Positions 1,426-56,875 of a DNA stretch of 64,000 bases are shown here, in pieces. The position numbers and the translations under genes were made by a program. The notes beneath the pieces are model-generated. The model saw only the letters and a list, made by a program, of their open reading frames with translations. It made no database searches and was not told the DNA's origin. Numbering within the stretch: the stretch's first letter is position 1; the number at the start of each line of letters is the position of its first letter. This stretch comes from Actinomycetota bacterium (GTDB lineage: Bacteria > Actinomycetota > Actinomycetes > S36-B12 > UBA5976): contig JAPLAV010000047.1 in the NCBI GenBank assembly GCA_026393095.1, forward strand, positions 1,430-65,429, read 5' to 3'.

Positions 1426-1980
1426 ATGACCACAACTGGGAAAAGTAGGAAATCACACTTTCCATCCATTGAAAAGAAATACGGCGAAAAAATGTCGTAT
1501 TGGTTCAAGGTCATGGAAAAGATTAAAGATCGAAAATACCCAGAACAAATTGCTCACTTAAGAGAAAACTATGGGTTTTCTCAAGCTCACGCCAATGCTT
1601 TAGTGATGTTTTCTAAAGGTTCTAAGTCAACTTCTAAATTTAAAGACGATAAAGACTATTTCAAAAGTATTGATCCCAAACAAGCAAAAACAATTAAATC
1701 TCTATATAAATTGATTCAAGCAAAGCACAAGAAACTTGAACTAGTAATTGCCTGGAATCAACCGATGCTTCGAAAAGACAAAAGTTATGTTATTGGAGCA
1801 GGAGTCACAAAAAACTACATTTTACTTAATCCTTTTAGTAAAAGTGTTATTGATAAATTCGGTAAAAAGTTAGCTGAATATGACGTTAAAAAACACACCT
1901 TTGCCGTTCCTAATGACTGGAAAATTGACCAAAAATTAATACTTGCCTTAGTTAAGGCTCGCTTGGATGAGATTAAATAA
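1426..1980 (+). CDS. Conserved hypothetical protein, DUF4287-like N-terminal half plus DUF1801/YdhG-like C-terminal half
   Basis: 184-aa ORF 7 nt after glnA2. The segment SIEKKYGEKMSYWFKVM...YGFSQAHANALV resembles DUF4287. The domain call is by eye only. Confidence 0.55.
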   Translation: MTTTGKSRKSHFPSIEKKYGEKMSYWFKVMEKIKDRKYPEQIAHLRENYGFSQAHANALVMFSKGSKSTSKFKDDKDYFKSIDPKQAKTIKSLYKLIQAKHKKLELVIAWNQPMLRKDKSYVIGAGVTKNYILLNPFSKSVIDKFGKKLAEYDVKKHTFAVPNDWKIDQKLILALVKARLDEIK

Positions 1981-2003: not shown

Positions 2004-2750
2004 ATGAATAAACCACCAGTTGTATTGGTTGTGCAAAACGAATTAGATGCACCCATTGGTTATTTAGAAGAATGGCTTTTTGAGCGAGGCGTTGGTATCG
2101 AAGTTATTTATCCTTTTAAAGGTGAAACTGTTCCAACAGAACCAGGGGATTTTGCTGGAGTAATTGTGTTAGGTGGATCTCGCGGAGTTCACGATGAAGA
2201 CCAATGGCCATGGTTAAAACAAGAAAAAGAATTATTAAGAAACGTGATTAAATCTCAAACTCCCACACTTGGTGTTTGTTTAGGCGGACAACTGTTAGCT
2301 GATGCTAATGGTGGCAAAGTTGGCAAAACTCAAAAACCAGAAATTGGCGTTGGTTTTGTTGAGTTCTTACCAGAAGCAAAAAATGATTCACTGCTATCTG
2401 CTGTGGTTGATTCTCCCGTTGCAATTCCAGTTCCTCAATATCATCAAGATGCAATATTGGAATTACCAGAAAATGCCAAATTATTGGTGACAAGTGATGA
2501 TTGTGCAGTGCAAGCTTTTGTTTTAGGTAAAAATGCCTGGGGATTGCAATTTCATCCTGAAACAGACTGGAACATCATGAGTGATTGGTTACTCAGCGAA
2601 GATGAAGTTAGAAAAACTCTGGGCATAACCGATGATTCAGTAGAGAATCAATTTAATGAACTGGGCGAAGGAATGAAAAATACCTGGAGAGCATTAGGTA
2701 TTGCTTTTGCTGACACCGTGGTTGATCACGCCGGTAAACAACAGAAATGA
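2004..2750 (+). CDS. Class I glutamine amidotransferase-like protein
   Basis: 248 aa. Nucleophile elbow GVCLGGQLLA and the LQFHPE His/Glu motif. Its stop overlaps the glnE start (ATGA at 2747-2750). Confidence 0.8.
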   Translation: MNKPPVVLVVQNELDAPIGYLEEWLFERGVGIEVIYPFKGETVPTEPGDFAGVIVLGGSRGVHDEDQWPWLKQEKELLRNVIKSQTPTLGVCLGGQLLADANGGKVGKTQKPEIGVGFVEFLPEAKNDSLLSAVVDSPVAIPVPQYHQDAILELPENAKLLVTSDDCAVQAFVLGKNAWGLQFHPETDWNIMSDWLLSEDEVRKTLGITDDSVENQFNELGEGMKNTWRALGIAFADTVVDHAGKQQK

Positions 2751-5677
2751 CAGAACGCCCGGTAACTGAAACCGGAATATTTTCTCGCTCAGGTTTTAGT
2801 AACCCAAGTAAATCTGCTGAGTTAATAAAAACCCTAAAAGCAGAAATCAATCATGAGTTATTAATTGATGATCTAAGTAAAGTCGCAGATCCTGATAACG
2901 CTTTATTACTTTTGGTGAGAATTGCTGATCAACAGGATAAAAACCTAGATAAAGTCTTAAAAGATGACGATGCTCGATTAAGACTTTTGCAGGTTTTAGG
3001 ATCCTCAAATGGATTAGGTGAGCACCTTGTTACTTATTCAGAAGATGTTTTAGTTTTCCTTGAAGAATCTGCAATTAACAAAGCCAGCACTAAAAATGAC
3101 TTAATCCAAGTATTTACAAAAGCTTCAAAAACCAGCAGAGCAAATCTGGTTCGAGAATATAGAAAAGTTCTACTCGGCCTAGCTTCCCGCGATATTTGTT
3201 ACAAATGGCCACTTCGAGATGTGGCAGCAGAATTAGCTGATGCAGCAGATGCAATATTACAAAGTGCATTAAATACAGCAATTGAAAAGAATCCAGAACT
3301 AGAAAAACAATTTAAATTAGCAATCATTGCCATGGGAAAAGCTGGGGGACAAGAACTTAACTACGTATCTGATGTTGACGTTATTTTTACCGCAGAACCA
3401 TCAAATGGAATTGAAGAACAAGTAGCAATTAGTGCTGCCACCAAAATTGCCACTGAAGTAATGCAATACATCAGTGTGGCAAATGATGGTGGAGAAATTT
3501 GGGAAGTCGATGCGGCCCTTAGACCTGAAGGAAAAGCAGGACCATTAGTTCGAACAGTTGAGCAACACGTTGCTTATTACCAACGCTGGGCTAGCACTTG
3601 GGAATTCCAAGCGTTATTAAAAGCTCGCTTTAGTGCCGGAAACTTAGAACTGGGTAATAAATATTTAGATGAAATAACACCTTTTGTGTGGAAAGCAGCG
3701 AGTAAAGAAAACTTTGTTGATGATGTGCAAAAGATGCGCAAAAGAGTGGAAGAAAACATTGATAACCGAATTGGGGAAAGAGAACTAAAACTAGCTCCCG
3801 GTGGACTTAGAGACGTTGAATTTGCTGTGCAACTTCTTCAATTAGTACACGGTCGAAGTGATGTGATGGTGAGAAGTCCTAACACTTTGGAAGCTCTCGA
3901 TCAACTTGCAACTTGGGGATATATCGGTCGAGAAGATGCTGCAACGTTTTCAACTGCCTACACATTCTTAAGAACACTTGAGCATCGAATTCAATTACAA
4001 AAACTATCTAGAACTCACGTTTTGCCAGAAGAAGATAGTGAATTAAGAAAACTTGGTAGATCTCTTGGATTCATGTCTGAATCAAGTGCTGATTTAGAAA
4101 AGCAATGGCGAAAACATCAATTAGAAGTAAGAAGAATTCACGAAAAGCTTTTCTATAGACCACTACTTAATGCTGTGGCAAGACTTGATGCAGGAAGTGC
4201 TCGTTTAACAATTTCTGAAGCAACTTCCCGACTAAATGCACTTGGCTATAAAGATCCAGAATCAGCTTTGCGACACATTGAATCTTTAACTACAGGCGTT
4301 TCTAGACGTGCGGTAATTCAAAAGACATTGTTGCCAGTTTTACTTTCCTGGTTTGCCGATGGACCAGAACCAGATATTGCATTGCTTTCCTTTAGAAGAT
4401 TAAGCGATGCCCTAGGTAGTACTCCATGGTTTTTAAGATTATTAAGAGATGAATCAGCTGCTGCTGAGTTAATGGCCAAACTTCTATCTTCTAGTAGATA
4501 TGCCACCGATTTATTAATGAGTGCTCCAGAAGCAGTTTCGATGTTAGGAAACTTAGAAGAACTTGAACCAAGAACTCGTGAGCAATATGAAACTGAAATG
4601 AATGCTGTAATTGCACGACATGAAACTGCTGAAAACATAGTTTCAGCTGCCCGATCTTTTAGAAGAAGAGAATTACTAAGAACAGCAACTGCTGATTTAA
4701 GTGGCAGATTAACTACTGAGCAAGTAGGAATTGCGTTAAGTAATGTTTACGCAACTGTTATCGAAACTGCTTTAAAAGGTGCAATTTTAGCTGTTGAGCA
4801 AGAAAGTGGAAAAGAAGTTTCCACCAACATGTGTGTGATTGCCATGGGTCGATTTGGTGGTTTTGAACTTGGGTATGGCAGTGATGCTGACGTGATGTTT
4901 GTGCACGAACCTAAAAAAGATTCAGATCCACAAGAAGCAGAAAAATGTGCGCTAGACGTTGCTAATCGTTTAAGAACATTGTTAATGCAGCCTTCAGTTG
5001 ATCCGCCATTAGAAATTGATGCTGATTTAAGACCTGAAGGAAAAAATGGTCCATTAGTTAGAACTCTTGATTCCTATCTTGCGTATTATCAAAAATGGTC
5101 TGCGCCCTGGGAAGCTCAAGCTTTACTACGAGCACTTCCTGTTGCAGGCGATTTAGCAGTTGGTGAGAAATTTATTCAAGGTATTAATAAAACTCGTTAT
5201 CCAGAAAATGGCGTAAGTGAAGAAAACTTACGCGAAATGAGAAGAATTAAGGCTCGCATGGAATCAGAAAGATTGCCTCGAGGAGCTGATGTAAATCTCA
5301 ATACCAAAATGGGTCGCGGTGGATTAAGTGATGTGGAATGGGTTGTGCAACTGCTACAAATGCAACATGGTTCAAAAAATAAATCTTTAAGAATTACTGC
5401 CACATTGCCAGCATTAAGAGCATGCGTCAAAGCAGAGCTAATTAGTGAATCTGATGCAAAGTCTTTAAGTGAATCTTGGACACTTGCGACCTGGATTAGA
5501 AATGCGCAAATGCTTTCCCGTGCTAAAGCAAATGATCAAATCCCAACAGATATTAATGAATTATCAGCAATTGCTTTTACACTTAATCAGAAATCTCATG
5601 CTCAATTAATTGAGGATTACCGAAGAATAACCAGACGGGCCAGATTAGTTATGGAAAAGATTTTCTACGGCGAATAG
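2747..5677 (+). CDS. glnE: Bifunctional glutamine synthetase adenylyltransferase / adenylyl-removing enzyme
   Basis: 976 aa with two tandem nucleotidyltransferase repeats (GKAGGQELNYVSDVDVIF and GRFGGFELGYGSDADVMF). Each repeat is followed by DAxLRPEGKxGPLVRT. Confidence 0.95.
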   Translation: MTERPVTETGIFSRSGFSNPSKSAELIKTLKAEINHELLIDDLSKVADPDNALLLLVRIADQQDKNLDKVLKDDDARLRLLQVLGSSNGLGEHLVTYSEDVLVFLEESAINKASTKNDLIQVFTKASKTSRANLVREYRKVLLGLASRDICYKWPLRDVAAELADAADAILQSALNTAIEKNPELEKQFKLAIIAMGKAGGQELNYVSDVDVIFTAEPSNGIEEQVAISAATKIATEVMQYISVANDGGEIWEVDAALRPEGKAGPLVRTVEQHVAYYQRWASTWEFQALLKARFSAGNLELGNKYLDEITPFVWKAASKENFVDDVQKMRKRVEENIDNRIGERELKLAPGGLRDVEFAVQLLQLVHGRSDVMVRSPNTLEALDQLATWGYIGREDAATFSTAYTFLRTLEHRIQLQKLSRTHVLPEEDSELRKLGRSLGFMSESSADLEKQWRKHQLEVRRIHEKLFYRPLLNAVARLDAGSARLTISEATSRLNALGYKDPESALRHIESLTTGVSRRAVIQKTLLPVLLSWFADGPEPDIALLSFRRLSDALGSTPWFLRLLRDESAAAELMAKLLSSSRYATDLLMSAPEAVSMLGNLEELEPRTREQYETEMNAVIARHETAENIVSAARSFRRRELLRTATADLSGRLTTEQVGIALSNVYATVIETALKGAILAVEQESGKEVSTNMCVIAMGRFGGFELGYGSDADVMFVHEPKKDSDPQEAEKCALDVANRLRTLLMQPSVDPPLEIDADLRPEGKNGPLVRTLDSYLAYYQKWSAPWEAQALLRALPVAGDLAVGEKFIQGINKTRYPENGVSEENLREMRRIKARMESERLPRGADVNLNTKMGRGGLSDVEWVVQLLQMQHGSKNKSLRITATLPALRACVKAELISESDAKSLSESWTLATWIRNAQMLSRAKANDQIPTDINELSAIAFTLNQKSHAQLIEDYRRITRRARLVMEKIFYGE

Positions 5678-16244: not shown

Positions 16245-17498
16245 ATGACAAAAAGAATTCATCCAGCTTGGGTCGTTGCAGGAATTACCTTTTTAACTTT
16301 AATTGCATCTGCTGGTACTAGATCTGCTCCTTCAGTTTTAATTGTTCCTTTGGAAGAAAGTTTTGGCTGGGGCAGAGACGAAATCTCTTTTGCAATTGCT
16401 GTGAATGTTTTACTCTTTGGTTTAGTTGCACCTTTTGCCGCAGCTTTAATGGAACGCTTTGGTATTAAAAAAGTAGTAATGACTGCCTTAAGCGTTGTGG
16501 GAACAGGTTCTGCATTAACAATATTTATTCAAAAACCTTGGCAATTAGTTGCTCTGTGGGGTGTTGTTGTTGGAGTTGGTACCGGTTCTATGGCGTTGGT
16601 ATTTGCCGCAAGCATTGCTAATAGATGGTTTATTAAAAATCGAGGCCTAGTTATTGGTGGCCTAACGGCTGCAACAGCAACTGGTCAATTAATTTTCTTA
16701 CCCGGATTATCAACACTGGCGATCAATATTGGTTGGCAAAGTGTTTCGATTGCAGTTTCATTGAGTTGTTTTGTGATGGTGCCAATTATTGGACTATTTA
16801 TGTATGAAAGACCTTCATCTGCAGGTGTTACTCCATACGGTGCACCTTTTGATTGGGTTGAGCCAATTCAAAACAAACAAAACGCAGGTCGTGTAGCAAT
16901 TGATTCTTTAAAGCAAGCTTTGAAAGTTAGAAATTTCTGGTATCTGGCTGGATCTTTTTTTGTGTGCGGATTATCAACTAATGGATTAATTGGAACACAT
17001 TTTATTCCAGCAGCTCATGATCACGGAATGATGGAAGTTGCTGCAGCAAGTTTACTTGCTTTGGTTGGCGTATTTGATGTGATTGGCACATTGTTTTCTG
17101 GTTGGTTAACCGATCGAATTGATCCTAAGAAATTACTTTTCTTTTATTACTTACTAAGGGGAGTTTCACTATTCTTACTTCCTTCAATTCTTTTCTCCAC
17201 AATTCATCCATCAACTTTAGTTTTTGTTATTTTTTACGGTCTGGATTGGGTTGCTACAGTTCCACCCACAATTTTGTTATGTAGAACCGTACTTGGACCT
17301 GAAAGAGCCACAGTTGTTTATGGTTGGGTGTTTGCCGCACACCAAATTGGTGGATCGATTGCAGCTTTAGGTGCAGGAATTGCTCGAGTTAAATTTGGGG
17401 ATTATTCCCTTGCTTTTTACACCAGCGGATTGTTATGTGTAATTACTGCTATGGCGGTATTGAAGATAAATTACAAGAAAGAAGTAATTAGTTCTTAA
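16245..17498 (+). CDS. MFS transporter (oxalate/formate antiporter-like)
   Basis: 417 aa with about 12 TM helices in a 6+6 arrangement around a central loop. Confidence 0.8.
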   Translation: MTKRIHPAWVVAGITFLTLIASAGTRSAPSVLIVPLEESFGWGRDEISFAIAVNVLLFGLVAPFAAALMERFGIKKVVMTALSVVGTGSALTIFIQKPWQLVALWGVVVGVGTGSMALVFAASIANRWFIKNRGLVIGGLTAATATGQLIFLPGLSTLAINIGWQSVSIAVSLSCFVMVPIIGLFMYERPSSAGVTPYGAPFDWVEPIQNKQNAGRVAIDSLKQALKVRNFWYLAGSFFVCGLSTNGLIGTHFIPAAHDHGMMEVAAASLLALVGVFDVIGTLFSGWLTDRIDPKKLLFFYYLLRGVSLFLLPSILFSTIHPSTLVFVIFYGLDWVATVPPTILLCRTVLGPERATVVYGWVFAAHQIGGSIAALGAGIARVKFGDYSLAFYTSGLLCVITAMAVLKINYKKEVISS

Positions 17499-17501
17499 AA
17501 T

Positions 17502-17535
17502 AATTATGGCCCCTAATTTCTTAGGGGCCATAATT
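17502..17535. terminator. Bidirectional intrinsic terminator between the MFS gene and the heliorhodopsin gene
   Basis: A perfect 15-bp stem (aattatggcccctaa / ttaggggccataatt) with loop tttc, and T-rich flanks on both strands. It lies 3 nt after the MFS stop and 19 nt after the heliorhodopsin stop. Confidence 0.8.
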
Positions 17536-17554: not shown

Positions 17555-18325
17555 TTAAGCAGGAATCAAAGTACCGGAGAAGATTTGCCAAGCAAGTGCT
17601 GATTTTGCAACCAAACTCAACACAATGTAGGCACGTTCTCCTCTTAAGTAATTACTCCATTTACCTTTGCCTTTGTATTGCAAGTATTGAACTAGGGCAA
17701 AAGAGTTAAAGAAGACAAATAGAGAAATGATGATGCCATAAACAAACCCTGGCACCTGCACATCAGAAGATGATCCTGGTGCGATTACATAAATTAGTAA
17801 TCCCAGCCAAGGAACAATTCCTGCGATGCAACCAAACCAAAATGGCAGTAAATCTCCATCTTTTGGTTGGGTGTATTTCTCTTGTAACCAGCCAAATAAA
17901 ATCATGGAAGCATTAACGCCAAATATTGCCAACAGGGCAACAATGTCTCCGATTCCACAAATTTGAGCAATCAAAACGATCATCAACGATGAGGAGAGTG
18001 AATATTCAACCCAACGAAAAATGTTTTGATTCTTAAGAAGTGAAGCTGAGTATCTCGTAAAGTATTTTTCACTTGCAACAATAAAGTGAAAAAGGGCAGA
18101 AAGTCCCAAGAATAAAGCAACTGCGAGACCAACTGGTGTGCTGAAAATAACTACTGGAGCGCTAAAAGTAGTTCCTGGAGGACCGTTTAAATATGTTCCT
18201 GTAACAGGTAATGCAAAATCATTTGCTAACGCTAGAACTGCCAACATTTGCAAAAGGTGGAATCCTCCTGCAATTCTGTTGAAATTCTTTAAAGACTTGA
18301 TTTGTTTAATTGTTGGCTTAGCCAT
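17555..18325 (-). CDS. heR: Heliorhodopsin (inverted-topology retinal-binding seven-helix protein)
   Basis: 256 aa with seven hydrophobic helices. Lys241 lies in helix 7 (LSLVAKSALAW), Glu107 in helix 3 (FRWVEYSLSS), plus His23 and His80. Lys/Arg clusters occur at the N-terminus and in loops 2-3 and 6-7, giving an N-in topology. From memory the sequence is about 90% identical to heliorhodopsin 48C12. SD AAGGAG lies 5 nt before the ATG. Confidence 0.92.
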   Translation of the reverse strand: MAKPTIKQIKSLKNFNRIAGGFHLLQMLAVLALANDFALPVTGTYLNGPPGTTFSAPVVIFSTPVGLAVALFLGLSALFHFIVASEKYFTRYSASLLKNQNIFRWVEYSLSSSLMIVLIAQICGIGDIVALLAIFGVNASMILFGWLQEKYTQPKDGDLLPFWFGCIAGIVPWLGLLIYVIAPGSSSDVQVPGFVYGIIISLFVFFNSFALVQYLQYKGKGKWSNYLRGERAYIVLSLVAKSALAWQIFSGTLIPA

Positions 18326-18386
18326 AACTTCTCCTTTTCCCTATGTCAGGCTAAAGCACAATTATTGAAAAAAGCTTGTTTAAATG

Positions 18387-18423
18387 AAAACACCCCCAAC
18401 AATTGACTTGTTGGGGGTGTTTT
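18387..18423 (-). terminator. Intrinsic terminator downstream of glnA1 (between glnA1 and the heliorhodopsin gene)
   Basis: An 11-bp GC-rich stem (cacccccaaca / tgttgggggtg) with a 7-nt loop, flanked by an A4 and a T-tract. On the minus strand the hairpin is followed by TTTTCATTT. Confidence 0.85.
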
Positions 18424-18433
18424 ATACGACTTT

Positions 18434-19858
18434 TTAGATGTCGTAGTACAGCTGGTATTCGTAAGGAGTTGGACGCAAACGAATTGGGTCCACTTCTTTT
18501 GTTCTCTTGTATTCAATCCAGGTATCAATTAGATCTGGAGTAAATACACCACCTGCTGTTAAGTAATCCTTGTCCTTTTCTAACGCAGTTAATACTGCAT
18601 CCAAAGAACCTGGGACTTGTGGCACAGATTTTGCTTCTTCTGGTGGTAGTTCGTAAAGATCCTTATCAACTGGTGTTGGCGGTTCGATTCTGTTTTTCAC
18701 ACCATCAATACCGGCCATCATCATGGCAGCAAATGCCAGATATGGATTACATGCAGGATCTGGAACTCTAAACTCAATACGTTTAGCTTTTGGATTAGAT
18801 CCAGTAATAGGAATACGAATTGCAGCGGAACGGTTTCTTTGTGAGTAAACCAAGTTCACTGGTGCTTCATAACCTGGAACTAAACGGTGGTATGAGTTAA
18901 CAGTTGGGTTAGTGAACGCCAGCAACGATGGAGCATGCTTTAACAATCCACCGATGTACCAACGTGCAACATCAGATAATCCGGCGTAACCTTTTTCGTC
19001 ATAAAACAAAGGCTTGCCATCTTTCCACAATGATTGATGACAGTGCATACCTGAACCGTTATCACCAAACATTGGTTTTGGCATAAAGGTTGCGGTGTGA
19101 CCGTTTAGGAAAGCTACGTTTTTCACAACATATTTAAACAACATGATTTGATCTGCTGATTTTAATAATGTGTCAAATTTGTAGTTAATTTCTGCTTGAC
19201 CAGCAGTTCCTACTTCGTGATGTGCGCGTTCAACTTCAAAACCAAGATTAATTAGTGTTGAAGAAATAATGTCACGCAAATCAGCAAAATGATCTACTGG
19301 AGGAACAGGGAAGTAGCCACCTTTAAATGGAGTTTTGTAGCCAAGGTTGCCACCTTCTTCTTCTCTTCCGGTATTCCAGGCTGCTTCAATTGAATCAATT
19401 TTGAAGAATGAACCATGTGGTTGATTATCAAAACGAACTTCATCAAAGATATAGAACTCAGCTTCTGGACCAAAATAAACAGTGTCAGCAATACCTGATG
19501 CTTTTAAGAAAGCTTCAGCTTTAGCAGCAACGTTTCTTGGATCTCTTGAATATGGTTCATTGGTGAATGGATCTCTAATTGAGAAATTCATTGCTAATGT
19601 TTTTGCTTCGCGGAATGGATCAAGATATGCAGTTGTCACATCCGGCATTAACTTCATATCTGATTCGTGAATTGCTTGGAAACCACGAATTGAAGAGCCG
19701 TCAAACATTAATCCGTCTTCAAAAACGGAATCATTAAATGCTTTGGCTGGAATGTTGAAGTGTTGCATAACACCAGGCAAGTCCATGAATCTCACGTCAA
19801 CGAATTCAATATCGTTTTCGCGGATGTACTTGATCGCCTCTGCGGCGTTCTTAAACAT
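18434..19858 (-). CDS. glnA: Glutamine synthetase type I (GSI-beta, adenylylation-regulated)
   Basis: GS motif [11 protein letters not shown] and adenylylation loop [12 protein letters not shown] place the start at ATG 19858, 6 nt after AGGAGG; the ORF track starts one codon earlier at a TTG. Confidence 0.95.
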
Positions 19859-19951
19859 CAATAACCTCCTGATAGAACTTTCTATTGGTTTTTAAAAAGA
19901 GGGCACGACCTCGGGCCATCAATCTGTTGGTTCATAACCTACTAAAGGGGT

Positions 19952-22834: not shown

Positions 22835-25057
22835 GTGAATTACGTGAGCCCTGCTGCAAAACCAAAACACAGCAAAAAAGTAGTTGCGAAAAAGACTGCC
22901 GCAAAGAAACCTAAAGTTAAAAAAGTTAAAGCACCTAAGAAATTTACATTCTTAGCTGTTGCCGTGGTCGTGATTTGGATGGGTATTTCAGGTGTGGCCG
23001 GTCCACTTTTTGGAAAACTATCTGAAGTTCAAGAAAACGATAATGCAGCATTCTTACCTGCATCAGCAGAATCCTCTCGAGTGAGTGAAGTTGCGACACA
23101 ATTTACTTCTTCAGATTCTCTTCCAGCCTTAGTCGTTGTAACAGGCGATTTAACTAAAGAAAATCTTGCTAAAGCAAATGAATTTGCCGCAAATATTGGA
23201 ACACTAAAAATTGAAGAAGGCGATGGCAAAGTTGTTGCAGACTATTTAGTAGCAGGCGCCAAATCTTTCCCAATTCCGTCAGAAGATGGAGAAGCGCTAT
23301 TAATTAGTGTTGAAATCTCTGCTGAAAAAATTGTTACTCCACTTCCAAACGGAGAACCAGCCCTTCCTGCCATTGTTAACACCATTAGAGATGGTGGCAA
23401 AGACATTGAAGGTCTAACAATTAACGTGACAGGTGCTGGCGGAATCCTGGCAGATCTTTTCGGTGCATTTGGCGCAATTGACACAACTTTGTTGTTAAGC
23501 ACACTTCTCGTGGTGGCTTTAATTCTTATTGTGGTTTATCGAAGCCCATTGCTATGGATCTTCCCCTTATTTTCAGCGGTGATTGCTCTTTCGCTTTCAG
23601 GGTCAATTGTTTATTTATTGGCTAAAGAAGAGATCATTACTTTAAATGGACAATCCCAAGGAATTTTGTCAGTTCTAGTAATTGGTGCAGCAACTGATTA
23701 TGGTTTGTTGCTCATTGCTCGTTATCGAGAAGAACTTCATTTAGTTGAATCAAGATTTAGTGCAATGAAAAAAGCATTACGTGGAGTATTTGAACCGATC
23801 GTAGCTTCTGGTGCAACAGTTTCTGTTGGATTATTAGTTTTGATCCTTTCAGAACTTGATGCCAATCGTTCCCTTGGTCCAGTTGGAGCCATTGGAGTTG
23901 TTTGCGCTGTTATAACAATGCTGACCTTGTTGCCAGCATTTCTCGTTATTTTTGGTCGTTGGATTTTTTGGCCAAGAATTCCACACTTTGATTCAAAGGA
24001 TGAGAAACTTTCAGGAATTTGGTCAAAAGTTGCAAAATATGTTGATAAGAAAACTCGTCGTGCTGGCTTAATCACTGGAGTTATTTTGTTGGCTCTTGCT
24101 GGTTATTCTTCACAACTTGATGCAAGTGGTTTATCTCAAACAGAAACTTTTGTTGGAAAACCAGATTCAGTAGTTGGTCAAGAAGTATTAGGACAACACT
24201 TCCCAGCAGGAGAAGGAAACCCTTCATACATTGTTGGACCAGCTGATAAAACTCAAGAATTAATCAAGGTAATAACTGACACACCTGGTGTGGGAGATGC
24301 TTTCCCAGTTCCAGATGGTCCAGTAATTCCTGGTCAACCTTTGCCAAAACCAAAATTTGTGAATAATCAAGTTTTGATTACTGCCACTTTGGAAGATGCA
24401 GCAGATTCAGCTGAAGCTAAAGCAACAGTTGTAAATTTGAGAGAAAAACTTGATGCGGTAAGTACTGATGCCTTAGTCGGTGGATTTACTGCGGTAAACG
24501 AAGATATTGCGGAAGCAAATGCTCGCGATAATCGAATAATTATTCCAACAGTGTTGGTAATTATTTTCCTTATCTTGGCCTTGCTCCTAAGAAGCCTTTT
24601 GGCACCATTCATGTTGATCTCAACAGTGGTGTTGTCATTTGCAGCAACTCTTGGTGCCTGTCAATTGGCATTTAAATATGTCTTTGGTTTCCCAGGAGCA
24701 GATACAGGATTTCCACTTTTTGCCTTCGTATTCTTAGTGGCATTAGGTATTGATTACAACATCTTCTTGATGACAAGAGTTCGAGAAGAATCAAAGAAAC
24801 TAGGAACCAGAGCTGGAACACTTAAAGCGTTAACTGTGACTGGAGGAGTAATTACTTCAGCCGGTGTGGTGCTTGCTGCAACATTTGCAGTGCTTGGATT
24901 GTTGCCACTGGTGTTCTTAGCTGAACTTGGTTTTGCGGTGGCATTTGGTGTGTTACTTGACACTATTTTGGTCAGATCTATTTTGGTGCCAGCATTAACA
25001 ATTGGTATCGGTAAAAAAATCTGGTGGCCAAGTAAGTTAATGAATGGTAAAAATTAA
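22835..25057 (+). CDS. MMPL-family (RND superfamily) membrane transporter with Lys-rich N-terminal tail
   Basis: 740 aa in a 2 x (1 TM + extracytoplasmic domain + 5 TM) layout typical of MMPL proteins. The start may instead be the GTG at 22844, 8 nt after GGAG. Confidence 0.8.
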   Translation: MNYVSPAAKPKHSKKVVAKKTAAKKPKVKKVKAPKKFTFLAVAVVVIWMGISGVAGPLFGKLSEVQENDNAAFLPASAESSRVSEVATQFTSSDSLPALVVVTGDLTKENLAKANEFAANIGTLKIEEGDGKVVADYLVAGAKSFPIPSEDGEALLISVEISAEKIVTPLPNGEPALPAIVNTIRDGGKDIEGLTINVTGAGGILADLFGAFGAIDTTLLLSTLLVVALILIVVYRSPLLWIFPLFSAVIALSLSGSIVYLLAKEEIITLNGQSQGILSVLVIGAATDYGLLLIARYREELHLVESRFSAMKKALRGVFEPIVASGATVSVGLLVLILSELDANRSLGPVGAIGVVCAVITMLTLLPAFLVIFGRWIFWPRIPHFDSKDEKLSGIWSKVAKYVDKKTRRAGLITGVILLALAGYSSQLDASGLSQTETFVGKPDSVVGQEVLGQHFPAGEGNPSYIVGPADKTQELIKVITDTPGVGDAFPVPDGPVIPGQPLPKPKFVNNQVLITATLEDAADSAEAKATVVNLREKLDAVSTDALVGGFTAVNEDIAEANARDNRIIIPTVLVIIFLILALLLRSLLAPFMLISTVVLSFAATLGACQLAFKYVFGFPGADTGFPLFAFVFLVALGIDYNIFLMTRVREESKKLGTRAGTLKALTVTGGVITSAGVVLAATFAVLGLLPLVFLAELGFAVAFGVLLDTILVRSILVPALTIGIGKKIWWPSKLMNGKN

Positions 25058-25788
25058 GAAATAGTTCCAACGGCGAGGCGCATTTCTTGCACCTCGCCGT
25101 TTATTTTTTCTAATTTGTAAGCTGCTGGTCCAGTTTTTGAATCAGAATCAATATCACTTAATACTTCAACAGGCTCAATTCCTTTAAAGACAATACCGGT
25201 GTGATCATCTGTGGCAAATGCAGTTTCAAAAGTTCCATTTTTAATAAGGGACTGTATAAGTGGTCTTCTTTGAGCTTCTGAGTCATAGTGAACACCATTG
25301 GCATAGGGAAGAAGCGCTAATCCGTTATTGACTGGTTTTAATTCAGGACCAAATGAATCAGTTGTTCCACCGATAAACCAACAAATTGATCCAGCACTTA
25401 CCCCAGATAAAACCGTGCCATTTTCCCAAGCAGTTTTTAATACTTCATCTACTTTGTGAAGTTTCCACACGGCTAAAAGATTTGCAACAGAACCTCCACC
25501 AACCCAAACTAAATCTGCATTGAGTAATCGTTTTTCTACATCTTCATTAGGTTGAGGAAATAAAGATAGATGTGTTACATCAACACTTAAATCACTTATT
25601 GCTTCATAACTTCTTGAAATATAAGAGGCATCATCACCAGTTGCTGTCATCATGAAACAAACTTTGGGACGTTCTTTTTTGGTCAATTCCAGTGCTTTTA
25701 AGAATGTGGCACCAGGTCTCATCACACCCCAGCGTTTAGTTGTTACAAATCCACCAGAGGTAGCAACTATGTATTTTTCTTTACTCAC
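25054..25788 (-). CDS. Peptidase S51 / type 1 glutamine amidotransferase-like protein (peptidase E-like)
   Basis: 244 aa. The pattern VWVGGGSVANLL…SGVSAGSICW resembles the S51 dipeptidase E/cyanophycinase fold. Assignment by eye. Confidence 0.6.
   Translation of the reverse strand: MSKEKYIVATSGGFVTTKRWGVMRPGATFLKALELTKKERPKVCFMMTATGDDASYISRSYEAISDLSVDVTHLSLFPQPNEDVEKRLLNADLVWVGGGSVANLLAVWKLHKVDEVLKTAWENGTVLSGVSAGSICWFIGGTTDSFGPELKPVNNGLALLPYANGVHYDSEAQRRPLIQSLIKNGTFETAFATDDHTGIVFKGIEPVEVLSDIDSDSKTGPAAYKLEKINGEVQEMRLAVGTIS
25069..25110 (+). terminator. Intrinsic terminator of the MMPL gene, embedded in the 3' coding end of the convergent S51 peptidase gene
   Basis: A 13-bp stem with one mismatch (aacggcgaggcgca / tgcacctcgccgtt), loop tttct, followed by TTATTTTTT. 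Confidence 0.8.
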
Positions 25789-27029
25789 AATCCCAAACTT
25801 ACCTTAACTAATGTTGCAGTATTTGTACCACTAAGAAGAGCTCCTTGAATTGAGGAAGTTACACGGTGATCTCCCGCAACAAACAAATCTTTATTAATTT
25901 GGTTTGAAGAAACAAGCGAAAATGGAGGAGTCATCTCAGGAAGGGCTTCCTTTATTTTGTACTCCTTGATCAATTCCCAATTCTCGGTGTTGACACCAAA
26001 AAGATGAGACAAATGTTTCTTCACACTTAATAAATCTGCGTTCTCGTTTGGAGAAATAGCAGAAGCTGAAACTAATACTTCACCATGAGGTGCATAACTT
26101 GGAGCAGCATTTGTTATAACTACAGCATTAGTTAGCGGTCCAGTTTTTTGAGAATCAACAAAAAGTATTGGTTTTGCCTTAACTATTGAATTAACACTTT
26201 TGTCTGCTTTGAAGTACCAAGTAGTTACCGAATGCATTTTTTTAGGTTCAAGTTTTAACCAAGATATTGCCGTTGTTGGGTCTGTGGCTACAACAATCTT
26301 TCGAGCCTGAATCTCACCATCTGAGGTAATTAGCTTGTTTTCTGAAATACTTAATACTTTTGTATTAAGGGAGATCTTTTCTTTTGGAAGTTTAGCTGCT
26401 AATTGATTTGAAATCTCTTGCATTCCTTTTGCTGGAACACTTGGTATTCCTTGCAAAAAGTTCTTCAAAACCACATCAAGAAATTTACGAGAGGTAGATA
26501 GTTCTGATTCTAGAAATACTCCTTGCAAAAAAGGTCTCAAGAGTTTTTCCAATAGTGCACCCTTAATTCCAGATTTAGTTAAAGATGCTTGTGCTGAGAT
26601 ATCTTTTGTGGTGGCAATTTGAGCATCAGAGGCAATCAAATACTGTAGAAAATATCTGACTAAGCCTAATTGACTCAAAGGATTTCCTGGTAAATCTCTT
26701 AGTAAACGAAAGCGAAAATCTTTACTTCGGAATGGATCAACAACTAATCTAAGACGTTTACCATCTCTTATTGCAACACCGGGAGTAAATGGCTTTAGAT
26801 CCAAGACTTGGTAATCAATTAAACGTTTTCCTTCGGCATAGCTGGGGTTATATAACTGAAATCCTCGATCAAGAGTAAATCCATCAATAACATCTGATCT
26901 GACTCTTCCACCAACTCCATCTGATGCTTCAAAAATTTGAAAGTCAATTTTGTTTTTCTGTAATTCGATTGCACAAGCTAAGCCCGCTAAACCTGCGCCA
27001 ATTATGGCGACTTCAACTTGCTTAGTCAT
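25785..27029 (-). CDS. NAD(P)/FAD-dependent oxidoreductase (amine oxidase / phytoene desaturase-like superfamily)
   Basis: 414 aa with an N-terminal dinucleotide-binding motif VAIIGAGLAGLACA followed by EASDGVGGR. The substrate is not assignable. Confidence 0.7.
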   Translation of the reverse strand: MTKQVEVAIIGAGLAGLACAIELQKNKIDFQIFEASDGVGGRVRSDVIDGFTLDRGFQLYNPSYAEGKRLIDYQVLDLKPFTPGVAIRDGKRLRLVVDPFRSKDFRFRLLRDLPGNPLSQLGLVRYFLQYLIASDAQIATTKDISAQASLTKSGIKGALLEKLLRPFLQGVFLESELSTSRKFLDVVLKNFLQGIPSVPAKGMQEISNQLAAKLPKEKISLNTKVLSISENKLITSDGEIQARKIVVATDPTTAISWLKLEPKKMHSVTTWYFKADKSVNSIVKAKPILFVDSQKTGPLTNAVVITNAAPSYAPHGEVLVSASAISPNENADLLSVKKHLSHLFGVNTENWELIKEYKIKEALPEMTPPFSLVSSNQINKDLFVAGDHRVTSSIQGALLSGTNTATLVKVSLGL

Positions 27030-27922
27030 TAATAGGTAATAGCTGAGTTTAAAGTGCTCAAAATATCTGAATGGTTAAATTTAAATCCAGAGGCTTTCAA
27101 TTTAGAAGGTAAAACTTTACTTGAGCCAAGTGCTTCGACAGAAAATTCACCTAAAGCAATTTTGAGAGCAAAACCTGGAACGTTAAAAAAAGCTGGTTTA
27201 TTAACTACACTTGATAAAGCTTTAGTAAATTCTGCATTTGTTACCGGACTTGGATTAGTTAGATTCACTCCACCAGTAAGTCTTACATCATCAATTAGGT
27301 GAAAAATTGCTCTAACTTCATCTTCCAGCGAAATATAGGACCAATACTGTTTTCCATTTCCTAATCTTCCCCCTAAACCAAATCTAAATAGTGGCAATAC
27401 TTTCTTAAGTAATCCACCACGCTTACTCATGACTAATCCTGTTCGAGGATGAACTACTCTGATGTTGTTTTTTCTAACTCTTTGTGCGGCATATTCCCAA
27501 TTGAAAACAACATCACTTAAGAAACCTTCACCTAGGCCAGCATTTTCATCAACTGCAACATCAGCGGTATCCCCGTAATAACCCATGGCTGAACCTGACA
27601 CAAAAACTGAAGGGGGAGTTCTTAAGTTAACAATTGCATTAGCAAGAGTTTCAGTTGAATTAACTCTGCTATTTAAAATCTCTTTTTTGTATTTCTTAGT
27701 CCAACGATGATCGCCCACCCCAGCACCAGCAAGATGCACGATTGCTGTGGAATTCTCAAGTACGGCTAAATCAATGACTCCTTTATTGGGATCCCATTGA
27801 GATTCGTTCTTTTCTTTAGGAGTACGTCGAACAAGTTTTACAACTTCTATTTTATTTTTTTCAGCTTCTCTAACTAATGCAGAACCAATTAAACCGGAAG
27901 CACCGGTTATCACTAATTTCAT
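27029..27922 (-). CDS. TIGR01777-type NAD-dependent epimerase/dehydratase family protein (YfcH-like)
   Basis: 297 aa with Rossmann motif VITGASGLIGSAL. Its position immediately downstream of the E2 gene matches that in mycobacteria. Confidence 0.8.
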   Translation of the reverse strand: MKLVITGASGLIGSALVREAEKNKIEVVKLVRRTPKEKNESQWDPNKGVIDLAVLENSTAIVHLAGAGVGDHRWTKKYKKEILNSRVNSTETLANAIVNLRTPPSVFVSGSAMGYYGDTADVAVDENAGLGEGFLSDVVFNWEYAAQRVRKNNIRVVHPRTGLVMSKRGGLLKKVLPLFRFGLGGRLGNGKQYWSYISLEDEVRAIFHLIDDVRLTGGVNLTNPSPVTNAEFTKALSSVVNKPAFFNVPGFALKIALGEFSVEALGSSKVLPSKLKASGFKFNHSDILSTLNSAITY

Positions 27923-33980: not shown

Positions 33981-34599
33981 CTTTTACAGCACTTACCGCT
34001 AAGGCAAGTTCTGCCAAGGGGTGAGCGTTTTCTTTTGTGTTCATAATTGTTTTGCAGCCCATAAATTTAATTGCTTCAGTTAGTGCTGGAATTACAGGTG
34101 TATTTGCTATTAGTAAATAGTCTTTTATTTTGGAATTAGATCTCATGGCGACAAAACCTAAAGCAATAGCACCTGGTCCTACCAAGATTGTTTTAGTTTG
34201 TCTTGAAGCTGATGCAATCAATGCGTTGAATGCAGCATAAGCATTTTCACCTAAAGTCTTAGTGATTACTTCTTGTGAATCTGATTTTAAAGTTCTGGTA
34301 ACCCGCAATAAATCTCTTAAATCTCCAGCATCTTTGACCCATTGATCATCATTGCCCACACTTGATTTACCTAACAGTGATGCAGCATCAATTGTTAGAA
34401 AAGCACCAATTAACCCACTTGCCAAAACTATGTCATGAGATGCATAAATTCCAATTACAGAAGTATTAGCATCAATTGCTTTATTTACATCATTTTTATT
34501 TTCACCAGAAAGCTTTTTATGTTCAACAGCAACAGGAGTGAGATCAGACCAATTAAATTTGGTGTCATCAAAGCCAAGTGCGAGAACTGAATTAATCAC
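33967..34599 (-). CDS. Hypothetical protein, last gene of the riboswitch-controlled ECF operon
   Basis: 210-aa ORF with a 4-nt overlap with the upstream S-component gene. I recognise no motif. Its 3' end overlaps convergent gcvT by 14 nt. Confidence 0.5.
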   Translation of the reverse strand: MINSVLALGFDDTKFNWSDLTPVAVEHKKLSGENKNDVNKAIDANTSVIGIYASHDIVLASGLIGAFLTIDAASLLGKSSVGNDDQWVKDAGDLRDLLRVTRTLKSDSQEVITKTLGENAYAAFNALIASASRQTKTILVGPGAIALGFVAMRSNSKIKDYLLIANTPVIPALTEAIKFMGCKTIMNTKENAHPLAELALAVSAVKASEL

Positions 34600-35384
34600 G
34601 CATTTAAGACTACAGGTTTAGAAAAATTGGCTTTCTTGGTCATGCGTCGCATTGCTTTAAGCAACGGGTTAGCAAGAAAAAATAACAAAGTAGCGGTAAC
34701 GATTCCTCTGGGTAAGTCATAACCAAAACTTGTCAAAAGACTAAATCTGACCCAGCGGGTCAATTGTTCGGTGATAGCTAAACCAGGTTGAAAAGATATT
34801 TCAGGCAAAAGCCCATTTGCGAAAGGCCAGAACCAAAGGTTGAGTAGTAGACCTGCGATAAAACCAACTAGAAATCCGTAACAGACCATCAACACTATTT
34901 CTTTTTTTCCAGTTAGTTTAGGAAGTAACCCAGCTCCTGCCCCAACCCACGCTGCCACCAACATTTGAAACGGTAGCCACGGGCCAATACCGCCAGTTAA
35001 AATCGCTGAACCAAGAATTCCAATTGCGCCCAAAACAAAACCAAAACTTGCACCAAGGGCTCTACCGCCAATAATGATGATTGCCCAAACTGGTTCCAAA
35101 CCAGCAACGTGCCCACCCAATGGTCTAACAGCTGCTACAACTGCGCTGAGCACTCCCAGAATTGCTAAAGATCGTGAATCAATTCCGCCTTGCATCACAT
35201 CAGCTAAAGCCACCATTAAAACTAAGGGGACTATTAGGAGCAACAAAATAGAAGCGTTATCAGAATTATTACTAAATGCAGAATCATTTTGTATCAGAAA
35301 TGGCCATAAGAATGCCATCAAACCAATTAAAGTTGTCACAACCATAGAAATTGTTGTTAAAGAATTTACTTTTATTAGTTTCAT
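34596..35384 (-). CDS. ECF transporter substrate-specific (S) component-like membrane protein
   Basis: I set the start at ATG 35384, which forms an ATGA overlap with the ATPase stop. About 262 aa with about 6-7 TM helices, Gly/Ala-rich. The position is typical of a dedicated ECF S component. Confidence 0.6.
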   Translation of the reverse strand: MKLIKVNSLTTISMVVTTLIGLMAFLWPFLIQNDSAFSNNSDNASILLLLIVPLVLMVALADVMQGGIDSRSLAILGVLSAVVAAVRPLGGHVAGLEPVWAIIIIGGRALGASFGFVLGAIGILGSAILTGGIGPWLPFQMLVAAWVGAGAGLLPKLTGKKEIVLMVCYGFLVGFIAGLLLNLWFWPFANGLLPEISFQPGLAITEQLTRWVRFSLLTSFGYDLPRGIVTATLLFFLANPLLKAMRRMTKKANFSKPVVLNA

Positions 35385-36988
35385 CTTAAATCTTCGAGTG
35401 CGAAAGCAACATCTGAAACAGTCAGCCAATTAGCTGGAGACATAACTTTAGAGACTTGCGGTGAAAACATGGGGGAACTAGAAAGCACTTCACTAACTGG
35501 ACCATCTGTAACAATTTCTCCATCAGCCAACAAAATAACTCGAGTAGCCACTTCAGCTGCCAATTCTACATCGTGGGTGGCAAGAATTATGGTGTGATTC
35601 TTTTTACCTAATTTTTGTAAGTTACTTACTAATTGTCTTTTGGCTGCATAATCAAGTCCCCGAGTTGGCTCGTCTAACAGAATCAAAGGTGGTTTAGCTG
35701 CCAGCACCACTGCTAGTGCTAAAGATAATTTTTCCCCTTCAGATAGATCACGTGGATGAGCATTTTCTGAAACATCAGTAGTTAATTGCTCAAAAATACT
35801 AAACGTAGTGCCCGGCACAGCATCAGAATCACTGTCACTGGAAATGCATTCGTTAATCACTGAATCAGCAATAAGTAAATCTGTAGGTTCTTGGGGAACA
35901 AGACCCACACTTTCAATTAAAGATTTTCCTTTTAGAGTTAAAGGATTTTTTCCGTTGACTAAAATTTTTCCACTCGTTGGTTCAAGTAAACCCACAAGTA
36001 GGGACAGCAGTGTTGATTTACCAGATCCATTTCTACCCATTAGGGCCACAATTTCTCCATCAGAGATGTCTAAATCAATATGTCTTAAAGCACGCAGGTT
36101 CCCATAGTTAAAATTAAGATTTTCTACACTCACCAAAGTTTTGGTGGGAACATTTACTCTAATTCTTGGTTTAGATTTCTCTAATCTGGTTCTTAATTCA
36201 TCAGCAAATTTGCGCGCATCTCTAACAGTTAAAGGAAGTGGTGACCAGCCTGCGGTTCTGCCTAATTCCACAACTGGGGGAGCCAATAAAGAACTAGCAA
36301 AAACTTGGGCTGGTCTATCTGCATAAACTTCAGCTTCACGATCAACCACAATTACGCGATCTGCATATTGCACAACTCTTTCTAATCTGTGTTCAGCTAA
36401 TACAACTGTTAACCCCAAATCGTGTACCAGTCTTTGTATTGCTGCTAAAACTTCTTCGGCAGCAGTGGGATCAAGTGCGCTGGTTGGTTCATCTAGTACT
36501 AAAACTTTGGGATTAGTTGTTAAAACTGAAGCAATTGCAACTCGTTGTCTTTGCCCTCCAGAAAGTGTGGCTAGTGATCTATTTCTTAACTCAGCCAAAC
36601 CTAATAAATCAAGAACTTCTTCTACTCTTCTTCTCATCGTGCTGGGAGCAATACCAAGTTGTTCCATGCCATAGGCAAGTTCATCTTCCACAAGATCGGT
36701 AACAAATGATGCGCGGGGATCTTGTCTGACAACTCCTACTAGATCAGCAAAATCTCTGGGTGGAAACTCTCTAATGGAGCGACCGTCAACAGAAACATCT
36801 CCAGTTAAATCTCCGCCCGTAAAATTAGGAACTAAACCGTTTAATAGTCCCAGGAGGGTGGATTTACCTGAACCAGTCTTACCAACTACTAAGACCAATT
36901 CTCCGGCTGGAATCGTTAGATTCACATTTTCAAGAATTGCAAAATTAGTGTCACTATATTTAAACGTTACGTTTTCAAATTTGATCAT
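35381..36988 (-). CDS. ECF transporter fused double ATPase (EcfA-EcfA'/CbiO-like)
   Basis: 535 aa with two ABC cassettes: Walker A GKTGSGKST and GRNGSGKST, signatures LSGGQRQRVAIA and a degenerate LSEGEKLSL. Confidence 0.9.
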   Translation of the reverse strand: MIKFENVTFKYSDTNFAILENVNLTIPAGELVLVVGKTGSGKSTLLGLLNGLVPNFTGGDLTGDVSVDGRSIREFPPRDFADLVGVVRQDPRASFVTDLVEDELAYGMEQLGIAPSTMRRRVEEVLDLLGLAELRNRSLATLSGGQRQRVAIASVLTTNPKVLVLDEPTSALDPTAAEEVLAAIQRLVHDLGLTVVLAEHRLERVVQYADRVIVVDREAEVYADRPAQVFASSLLAPPVVELGRTAGWSPLPLTVRDARKFADELRTRLEKSKPRIRVNVPTKTLVSVENLNFNYGNLRALRHIDLDISDGEIVALMGRNGSGKSTLLSLLVGLLEPTSGKILVNGKNPLTLKGKSLIESVGLVPQEPTDLLIADSVINECISSDSDSDAVPGTTFSIFEQLTTDVSENAHPRDLSEGEKLSLALAVVLAAKPPLILLDEPTRGLDYAAKRQLVSNLQKLGKKNHTIILATHDVELAAEVATRVILLADGEIVTDGPVSEVLSSSPMFSPQVSKVMSPANWLTVSDVAFALEDLR

Positions 36989-38163
36989 GCAGCTTGCCTA
37001 TTTACTTGATTGGAAACTTTAAATAAATCTGAAGTTGGCCGAGAAGTCAATGGTGGTTTTGGGGAAAAGGTTATCGCTAAAACTGACACCCAAATGCTGG
37101 AAAGTGTTATGAAATTTATTTGCGGAAAACTCAGTGGACTGCTCAGAGGGTTAAGCACAATATTTTCAGTAAATCTCATTGCCACTAAACCAAACAGTGC
37201 AGTGGTAATGACTAGTACTTCTGGAATGTGCCACTTATCTGGACGATATTTAGTCCTAGAAGCATTCTGGCCAGCAAACCTCAGCGCAAAAAAGGAAAGT
37301 GCGATACCAATGATCATTGTTAATAAACCAATTTTTGACTGACTAAATACGCCTAATAATCCAGCCAACCCTAAAAGTATTCCCAATAATCCGCCCAGCA
37401 TAAAAATATTTGTAAGTTTTCTTTTTAAAGTGCTTTGATGTATTCGTCTGCCATAACCTCGAGAGTCCATGGCTGAGGCTAACAGCAAAGCTCTTTCCAT
37501 AGCACCTTCTAAAACGGGCACAAATGTTTTAGCTAAGGCAGGAATCCCAGTAGTTTTTCTGCCTCTCAAATATTGTGCATCTCTTACCCGCTTGGCATCA
37601 AATGCAAGTTGGGGAGCAAAAGTTAAAGCTACCGTAATTGATAAACCAACTTCATAAAGTGCTGCTGGAATTGATTTGAGCATTCTGGTTGGTGAAGCTA
37701 AAGATTGAGCACCACCAATGCAAACCAGAATTGTGGCAAGCCTTAAGCCTTCTTGGAACGCAAATAAAACAGTATTGGCTTTAATTTCACCACCTAATTT
37801 AACTCCTGCAAAAAAACTGGGTAGATCAATTTCGGGAAGAGTAAATAATAAGGTGTCACCGAAAATATCGGGTGTAATAATTACTAAAAGTATTCTAAAA
37901 ATAATCACAAATCCTGCAGCGAATAAATAGCCTTTTATCGATTTAGACCAGGGGGCATCACTTTTTCTGAATTTCACTACAAGTAAAACTACCGAAATTA
38001 TTGAAAGTAAAAATATTGGATTTTTAGTACCTGCAGCCATTGCTGCTAACAAAATTGCCCATAACCACCAAGCACCAGAGTGTAAAAATCGTTGTTCAGC
38101 TAAGGACAAGGGCTTATGCCATCTGCGGGGGGCAGATGGCACAAGAGTCTTATTTTTCAGCAA
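36985..38163 (-). CDS. ECF transporter transmembrane (T) component, EcfT/CbiQ-like
   Basis: 392 aa polytopic protein with the coupling-helix motif SAMDSRGYG. 4-nt overlap with the ATPase gene. Confidence 0.8.
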   Translation of the reverse strand: MLKNKTLVPSAPRRWHKPLSLAEQRFLHSGAWWLWAILLAAMAAGTKNPIFLLSIISVVLLVVKFRKSDAPWSKSIKGYLFAAGFVIIFRILLVIITPDIFGDTLLFTLPEIDLPSFFAGVKLGGEIKANTVLFAFQEGLRLATILVCIGGAQSLASPTRMLKSIPAALYEVGLSITVALTFAPQLAFDAKRVRDAQYLRGRKTTGIPALAKTFVPVLEGAMERALLLASAMDSRGYGRRIHQSTLKRKLTNIFMLGGLLGILLGLAGLLGVFSQSKIGLLTMIIGIALSFFALRFAGQNASRTKYRPDKWHIPEVLVITTALFGLVAMRFTENIVLNPLSSPLSFPQINFITLSSIWVSVLAITFSPKPPLTSRPTSDLFKVSNQVNRQAA

Positions 38164-56733: not shown

Positions 56734-56775
56734 TGGAAATGGCGGAAACGTCCATTAGTTGGGGTTAAACCCAAG

Positions 56776-56852
56776 TTATCCACAGCAGATGAGCCCAAAA
56801 GACGAAGGCTACAAGCCAGTTATCCACAGGGCGAAACCCACGGTTATCCACA
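56776..56852 (+). promoter_or_regulatory. Cluster of three perfect DnaA boxes (TTATCCACA) in the nrdR leader
   Basis: GTTATCCACA occurs three times in the same orientation, with the 9-mers at 56776-84, 56820-28 and 56844-52 (spacing 44 and 24 bp). All lie between the candidate promoter and the nrdR SD/start. Confidence 0.6.
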
Positions 56853-56875
56853 CCATATTTGATTGGAGCACGGCA

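Follow-up and report, generated by a model that had tools for sequence, protein, structure and literature searches.

The window analyzed here, by which we mean the whole 64-kb stretch of DNA, contains a gene predicted to encode a heliorhodopsin (HeR) of the 48C12 type, and its assignment as a close orthologue of HeR-48C12 is fully supported by the sequence comparisons described below. That the product is a HeR and that it acts as a sensor or regulator is, both parts taken together, very probable in our judgment. Within the same 64 kb are found the adjacent gene for the glutamine synthetase (GS) GlnA1, the gene for GlnA2, an orthologue of the only GS proven to be a HeR partner, and the gene for the GS adenylyltransferase GlnE (Table 1).

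Table 1 Positions of the HeR gene, its flanking elements, and other features in the window
Feature	Position	Strand	Basis or remark
glnA2-type GS, 447 aa	75..1418	+	No adenylylation motif; 68–70% identity to GS adjoining Planktophila-type HeRs
DUF4287 gene	1426-1980		Directly after glnA2
glnE, GS adenylyltransferase	2747..5677	+	Profile match
MFS transporter, converging on HeR	16245-17498	+	Profile scan
Predicted bidirectional terminator	17503..17534	.	14-bp inverted repeat ATTATGGCCCCTAA / TTAGGGGCCATAAT between the converging HeR and MFS stops
HeR coding sequence, 256 aa	17555..18325	−	ORF, profile matches, 48C12 alignment
HeR ribosome-binding site AAGGAG	18331..18336	−	5 nt 5' of ATG; conserved as AAAAGGAG in all close relatives
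HeR 5' region, terminator to ribosome-binding site	18337..18381	−	TANNNT hexamer (TAGCCT in the window), in register across relatives
Predicted intrinsic terminator of glnA1	18382..18423	−	~16-bp hairpin, then UUUUCAUUU; starts ~10 nt past the glnA1 stop
glnA1-type GS-I, directly upstream of HeR	18434..19861	−	TIGR00653, 681 bits; adenylylation motif DLYELP
Conserved trio: peptidase S51, 414-aa flavin amine-oxidase-family protein, YfcH/TIGR01777 epimerase-like protein	25054-27922	−	Also in L088 and L089
277-aa protein	34596-35429		Likely B12 uptake operon; no Pfam match
Double ABC ATPase	35381-36988		Likely B12 uptake operon
CbiQ	36985-38163		Likely B12 uptake operon
227-aa anchored protein	38169-38852		Likely B12 uptake operon; no Pfam match
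Cobalamin riboswitch RF00174	39013-39158	−	31.5 bits, equal to the gathering score; E 2.9e-6
447-aa ORF	55102-56445	−	Sub-threshold Peptidase_M23 match, 22.8 bits versus cutoff 28.7; no NCBIfam match
NrdR	56759-57391
B12-dependent class II ribonucleotide reductase	57437-60235
Glu/Leu/Phe/Val-type dehydrogenase, probably GDH	61967-63208

Family assignment and functional residues

The open reading frame proved intact when the sequence was checked, and it starts with ATG. Its product matched the Pfam family Heliorhodopsin (PF18761) over the entire profile (positions 1–242 of 242) with 329.4 bits against a cutoff of 26.7, this being the sole Pfam match at E ≤ 0.01, and the NCBIfam HeR equivalog NF038020 with 341.5 bits against a cutoff of 100. 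The 48C12 chains in the Protein Data Bank (6SU3, 6UH3, and 9LJJ) aligned gaplessly from end to end (E ~1e-155), with TaHeR and the eukaryotic Cv06 as more remote matches. The bacteriorhodopsin family of type-1 rhodopsins (PF01036) gave no match at E ≤ 0.01, the helix-C pump motif (DTD, DTE, or NDQ) was not found in the protein, and helix G carries SxxxK instead of the DxxxK of type-1 pumps. The hydrophobic blocks of the hydropathy profile fit seven transmembrane helices. An earlier reading of the same DNA from its sequence only (hereafter the sequence-only reading) had proposed a 256-residue HeR with seven hydrophobic helices and no type-1 pump motifs, and had named a search with the Pfam model and a pairwise alignment with 48C12 as checks; the full-length profile matches, the PDB matches, the hydropathy blocks, and the functional residues lying in register bear out this identity.

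HeR-48C12 itself originates from an actinobacterial fosmid from Lake Kinneret and is represented by PDB entries 6SU3/6SU4, 6UH3, and 9LJJ. The two proteins are equal in length and align without gaps, with 237 of 256 residues identical (92.6%), close to the value of about 90% given previously. Eleven of the 19 substitutions are located in the cytoplasmic N-terminus and the B–C loop, the others being conservative and situated in the helices and extracellular loops, with none in the retinal pocket, the cavity, or the D–E and F–G loops. All of the 37 structure-defined residues named by Kovalev et al. 2020 (PMC7049168), covering the Schiff-base region, the water cavity, the hydrophobic barrier, the E149 region, the retinal pocket, and the surface clusters, are identical in the window HeR. 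The Schiff-base lysine K241 (codon 17603–17605) lies within the helix-G motif S237-L-V-A-K241 and the counterion E107 (codon 18005–18007) in helix C; H23, H80, S76, S111, N101, Y108, N16, E230, R104, Y92, and S237 are kept as well.

The residue and codon coordinates given in the sequence-only reading for K241, E107, H23, and H80 were all correct on rechecking, and K241 and E107 align with the Schiff-base lysine and the counterion of 48C12. Its description of E107 as a single buried carboxylate holds in that no other carboxylate lies deep in helix C, E149, E230, D36, and D127 being at helix ends. Its roles for K241 and E107 also stand, but not its assignment of the proton-accepting group, because the proton acceptor in 48C12 is a water cluster rather than H23, H80, or E107, the histidines assisting the transfer (Kovalev et al. 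2020, PMC7049168).

Because all of the pocket residues are identical to those of 48C12, the window HeR is expected to bind all-trans retinal, to absorb at ~550 nm, and to undergo a sensor-type photocycle lasting seconds without ion pumping. Light-driven or light-gated ion transport, as in the viral heliorhodopsin V2HeR3, is by comparison a very improbable mode of action. Proton transport by some viral HeRs is among the reports cited in passages of PMC12873467 and PMC11109279; however, 48C12 with its same internal residues shows no transport (PMC7049168), the extracellular half of the HeR is wholly hydrophobic, and the viral subfamily 2 differs at these very residues, for example at position 202, which is Glu there and Leu in the window HeR. 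The family, the structure of so similar a protein, the topology, and the GS neighborhood are already published, so that the window HeR adds little as an object, and the weight formerly given to it as the most interesting element of the window is not upheld for an orthologue this close to the type protein.

Topology and sequence constraint

With the helix boundaries transferred from 48C12, 16 Lys and Arg residues fall within the N-terminus and the B–C, D–E, and F–G loops, whereas the opposite face has none; K241 is the sole further basic residue. By the positive-inside rule, this distribution predicts an inverted topology with the N-terminus in the cytoplasm, the orientation shown experimentally for 48C12 (PMC7049168). 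The same orientation had been derived in the sequence-only reading from the clusters K3/K7/K10/K13/R17, K87/R91/K98/R104, and K218/K220/K222/R228/R231, each member of which is correct, although K150 and K155 of the D–E loop were left out of that list.

Nine metagenomic loci encode HeR proteins 91–95% identical to that of the window. In comparisons with the eight of these that have full-length genes, dN/dS was 0.04–0.11 at dS of 0.3–0.75, which indicates that the window gene is functional. The 37 positions variable within the clade are distributed unevenly: six each are in the N-terminus and the B–C loop, five each in the A–B and E–F extracellular loops, one in the F–G loop (K/R218), and none in the D–E loop, helix D, or helix G, with the other 14 spread over helices A, B, C, E, and F, the C–D loop, and the C-terminus. 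The D–E and F–G loops are the surfaces mutated by Cho et al. for mapping GS binding in AbHeR, the HeR of Actinobacteria bacterium IMCC26103 (PMC9529153). Their invariance could also have a purely structural cause, namely the roles of E149, R104, E230, and Y226.

Probable transcription unit of the HeR gene

The stop codon of glnA1, a gene overlooked in the sequence-only reading, lies 108 bp upstream of the HeR start in the same orientation. The spacer, which holds the predicted glnA1 terminator, folds at ΔG −33.9 kcal/mol (z = −5.1 versus shuffles). All seven close loci with upstream DNA have the hairpin at the equivalent place. In a more distant locus (L002), the corresponding position is occupied by a hairpin of unrelated sequence followed by a U-run, a pattern that marks a terminator maintained for its function and not simply a stretch of sequence that has failed to change. 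On the other side of the gene, the inverted repeat folds at ΔG −24.7 kcal/mol (z = −5.8). Both flanking hairpins were found by reading the sequence and confirmed by folding, a consensus terminator scan having missed them.

Bounded by the terminator of glnA1 upstream and the bidirectional terminator downstream, the HeR gene is probably a monocistronic unit. The TANNNT hexamer, ~25 nt before the ATG, may be the −10 element of its own promoter; a promoter consensus scan near the gene gave a weak match only (18390–18361). Because of the strong conserved hairpin between them, glnA1 and HeR would not form an operon of the kind found with AbHeR, and the conserved terminator means that reasoning from a shared operon should not be extended to the 48C12 clade.

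Glutamine synthetase genes and synteny of HeR loci

The start codon of glnA1 is probably the ATG at 19858 rather than the TTG at 19861 (product MMFKN..., 475 aa), since the orthologue in locus L005 is 474 aa long from its ATG. An exact-sequence look-up of the 475-aa product as called from TTG returned no record, for which the wrong start may be the explanation. The presence of glnE shows that classical post-translational control of GlnA1 is already in place. Both GS proteins of the window are candidate HeR partners, GlnA1 by adjacency and GlnA2, encoded 16 kb from HeR, by homology, being of the type of AbGS, the GS partner of AbHeR. Nitrogen-assimilation genes are unusually dense in these 64 kb, comprising glnA2, a class-I glutamine amidotransferase, glnE, glnA1, and the Glu/Leu/Phe/Val-type dehydrogenase.

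Synteny was compared over 160 related loci, onto which the window proteins were mapped by tblastn; neighbor counts are based on the 118 loci with enough upstream DNA, in a sample that is redundant (L009 and L092, for example, represent a single contig). The order lipB-lipA-DUF4191-RDD-glnA1 precedes HeR in every locus of the 48C12/window clade that has upstream sequence, and the gap between glnA1 and HeR is 108–109 bp in 7/7 loci at 91–95% HeR identity. At 73–76% HeR identity, the range to which the best species-representative genomes also belong, glnA1 lies in the neighborhood in all three loci; the gap is 589 bp in L002 and 3.36 kb in L005 and L007 (74–76% HeR identity), where inserted genes for a P-type ATPase and a beta-CASP hydrolase interrupt the glnA1–HeR pair. 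The closest relatives of the source organism come from lake metagenomes.

For the Planktophila-type HeRs (63–70% identity), a GS gene is located 25–66 bp upstream in 28 loci, and its product is 68–70% identical to window GlnA2 but just 35–39% to window GlnA1. As the latter range reproduces the 36.6% identity reported by Cho et al. between AbGS and the GS beside 48C12 (PMC9529153), AbGS is assigned by sequence to the GlnA2 paralogues. Taking all 118 informative loci, GS is the commonest upstream neighbor of HeR (38 loci), followed by UbiA as the next family with 15 loci; the rest are diverse and include alpha/beta hydrolase (12 loci), Zn-ADH (7 loci), and peptidase S51 (7 loci). The genes glnA1, glnE, and glnA2 are neighbors in many actinobacteria, for example in M. 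tuberculosis (Rv2220–Rv2222c), and we take this arrangement to be ancestral, so that the two GS adjacencies of HeR may descend from one ancestral locus. Their use as independent lines of evidence was accordingly downgraded, since a single ancestral insertion at glnA1-glnE-glnA2 could explain both.

Several side observations concern the same loci. The window has the order glnA2, DUF4287, GATase, glnE, and a divergent DUF4287 gene lies 46–74 bp upstream of HeR in eight Planktophila-type loci, including L018, L031, L037, L046, L080, and L110; this placement may likewise point to an ancestral connection of the HeR position with the glnA2 region. The slot between HeR and a saccharopine-dehydrogenase-like gene holds an MFS gene in the window, L083, and L084, DUF305 in L086–L088, DUF305 plus a haemolysin-III family protein in L085, and nothing in L082 and L089. 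With this variable content, the slot has the look of a local hotspot where genes are gained and lost, beside the fixed glnA1–HeR junction. Two separate contigs of one MAG (REEB492), L044 and L080, each encode a HeR ~66% identical to the window protein, which may reflect either a second HeR copy in some freshwater actinobacteria or a mixed bin.

Retinal supply and other genes of the window

By its gene content, the window is a typical actinobacterial region (39% GC), with the glnA1-RDD-DUF4191-lipA-lipB order, Cyt_c_ox_IV, DUF3043, and MMPL as markers. When all 56 ORFs of 100 aa or more were compared with Pfam and NCBIfam, no match was obtained to the crtE/B/I/Y or blh families, in agreement with the earlier statement that retinal-synthesis genes are absent, and none of the ORFs encodes a type-1 rhodopsin. 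According to Chazan et al., blh is generally rare near HeR genes. The Amino_oxidase gene at 25785–27029 was considered as a hidden crtI and rejected, since it scored 42 bits against a cutoff of 238 and only its FAD-binding N-terminus matches; the resemblance of its 414-aa product to HpnE, CrtI, and PPOX is confined to that part.

These gene scans bear on a further reading, in which the HeR is not primarily a signaling protein and serves instead as a two-chromophore light harvester that recruits external xanthophylls, or as a light-dependent enzyme or binder whose targets in the cytoplasmic cavity are small planar anions or lipids. Every cavity residue is conserved in the window HeR, a lateral fenestration or carotenoid-binding site is reported for 91% of HeRs including 48C12 (preprint 10.1101/2025.11.27.691015), a triangular anion was seen in the cavity at low pH (Kovalev et al. 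2020, PMC7049168), and lipid remodeling has been proposed by Chazan et al. We nevertheless judge this reading improbable: no bacterial HeR is known to have an output that is enzymatic or conserves energy, an antenna alone gives no function, and the 56 ORFs scanned include no carotenoid, DegV, or DUF2177 genes.

Among the remaining features, the cobalamin riboswitch, which a whole-window Rfam scan at gathering thresholds (no matches) had missed, precedes a likely B12 uptake operon, and a class II ribonucleotide reductase that depends on B12 is encoded in the window together with NrdR (Table 1). A tRNA search of the window found none.

Proposed mode of action and candidate partners of the HeR

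In the proposed mechanism, the HeR would be a seven-helix protein with its N-terminus in the cytoplasm, carrying retinal on K241 with E107 as counterion, and would be transcribed as a unit of its own. We infer that light is relayed through the cytoplasmic face, a light-induced conformational change being passed to a partner protein via the D–E and F–G loops. The leading candidate for this partner would be a GS, either the adjacent GlnA1 or GlnA2 as the orthologue of the AbHeR partner, and nitrogen assimilation would thereby become light-responsive. The function of HeR had been called unresolved in the sequence-only reading, which overlooks the published regulatory roles (PMC9529153, PMC9769723, PMC11109279). 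AbHeR binds the adjacent GS, as measured by isothermal titration calorimetry (ITC), and up-regulates it in activity assays through lysines of the F–G loop (K216/K217/K220 in AbHeR numbering), raising GS activity under light, and its substitutions E151Q and D223N tightened GS binding (Cho et al. 2022, PMC9529153). Co-transcription of HeR and GS has been described in Planktophila (PMC8612252), and relatives have been reported to regulate a photolyase (PMC9769723) and an ABC transporter (PMC11109279).

A GS as the partner of the window HeR is favored by the binding data for AbHeR, the frequency of GS as a neighbor, and the invariant loops. At the level of single residues, K218 and K222 are retained, with K220 as an extra lysine and G219 at the position of AbHeR K217, and Q153 and N225 match the substitutions E151Q and D223N. 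Doubt arises from the terminator, from the neighbor being the other paralogue, from the interrupted adjacency in L005 and L007, from the loop motif being unspecific, and from Cho et al., who themselves doubt that 48C12 binds its neighboring GS (PMC9529153). The basic motif of the F–G loop is equally conserved in HeRs with unrelated neighbors and was for that reason rejected as a marker of GS-binding HeRs. A large survey of HeR neighbors in which the word glutamine does not occur (10.1101/2021.02.16.431466), together with the possible origin of both adjacencies from a single ancestral locus, also counts against a GS partner. On balance, regulation of a GS is put forward tentatively, as a possibility open to considerable doubt.

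The main rival reading is a genuine HeR sensor whose partner is not a GS, the glnA1 adjacency being an inherited gene order in a streamlined genome and the target, or several targets, being encoded elsewhere; we give this possibility serious weight, a little short of an even chance. It would explain why the conserved terminator isolates HeR transcriptionally, why the adjacency is broken in L005 and L007, and why HeRs of 63–70% identity keep the loop motifs beside such diverse neighbors as UbiA, alpha/beta hydrolase, Zn-ADH, and peptidase S51, and it is in line with the action of other HeRs on photolyase and ABC transporters (PMC9769723, PMC11109279) and with the reservation of Cho et al. on the 48C12–GS pair (PMC9529153). 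It is at odds, however, with GS of either paralogue being the most frequent single upstream neighbor in the sampled loci and with the biochemical precedent in a 66%-identical homologue (PMC9529153). A non-signaling role and ion transport are both less likely than regulation of a GS or a sensor with another partner.

Returning to regulation of a GS, we speculate that the target of HeRs of the 48C12 type is GlnA1, the housekeeping enzyme under GlnE control, and not GlnA2, or that they act on both, through the clade-invariant D–E and F–G loops and with expression from their own promoter. This more specific proposal is unlikely as it stands, but if true it would mean a direct light input into primary ammonium assimilation of abundant freshwater actinobacteria, with the dosage of HeR set independently of glnA1. 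The question is thereby sharpened to whether the 48C12 clade acts on GlnA1, on GlnA2, or on neither.

Comparison with known systems

The arrangement in the window is worth comparing with those of HeRs already described. On the 48C12 fosmid, according to its published description, a GS gene also adjoins HeR, with a gap larger than in the rest of the GS group of Cho et al. As in that group, GS is directly upstream of the window HeR on the same strand; the short-gap GS operon without terminator is replaced by a 108-bp spacer with hairpin and U-tract, and the AbGS (GlnA2)-type neighbor by a GS 35–39% identical to those of the Planktophila type. AbHeR-type HeRs are ~63–68% identical to the window HeR, and AbHeR itself 66%. 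AbHeR and the window HeR have in common their membership in HeR subfamily 1, the GS gene immediately upstream, and the residues E149/K150, K218, K222, R228, and E230 (48C12 numbering). However, the neighbor of AbHeR is a GlnA2 paralogue at 25–66 bp, co-transcribed and with no predicted terminator between, whereas that of the window HeR is a GlnA1 with an adenylylation site, set apart by a conserved terminator, the GlnA2 orthologue being encoded at a distance. Neighbor profile scans detected no transducer, photolyase, ABC multidrug transporter, histidine kinase, or MerR gene beside the window HeR. The mode of action proposed here, a slow photocycle with the signal passed on by protein contact and not by ion transport, is that of TfHeR with photolyase, of OcHeR with OmrDE, and of sensory rhodopsins with their transducers.
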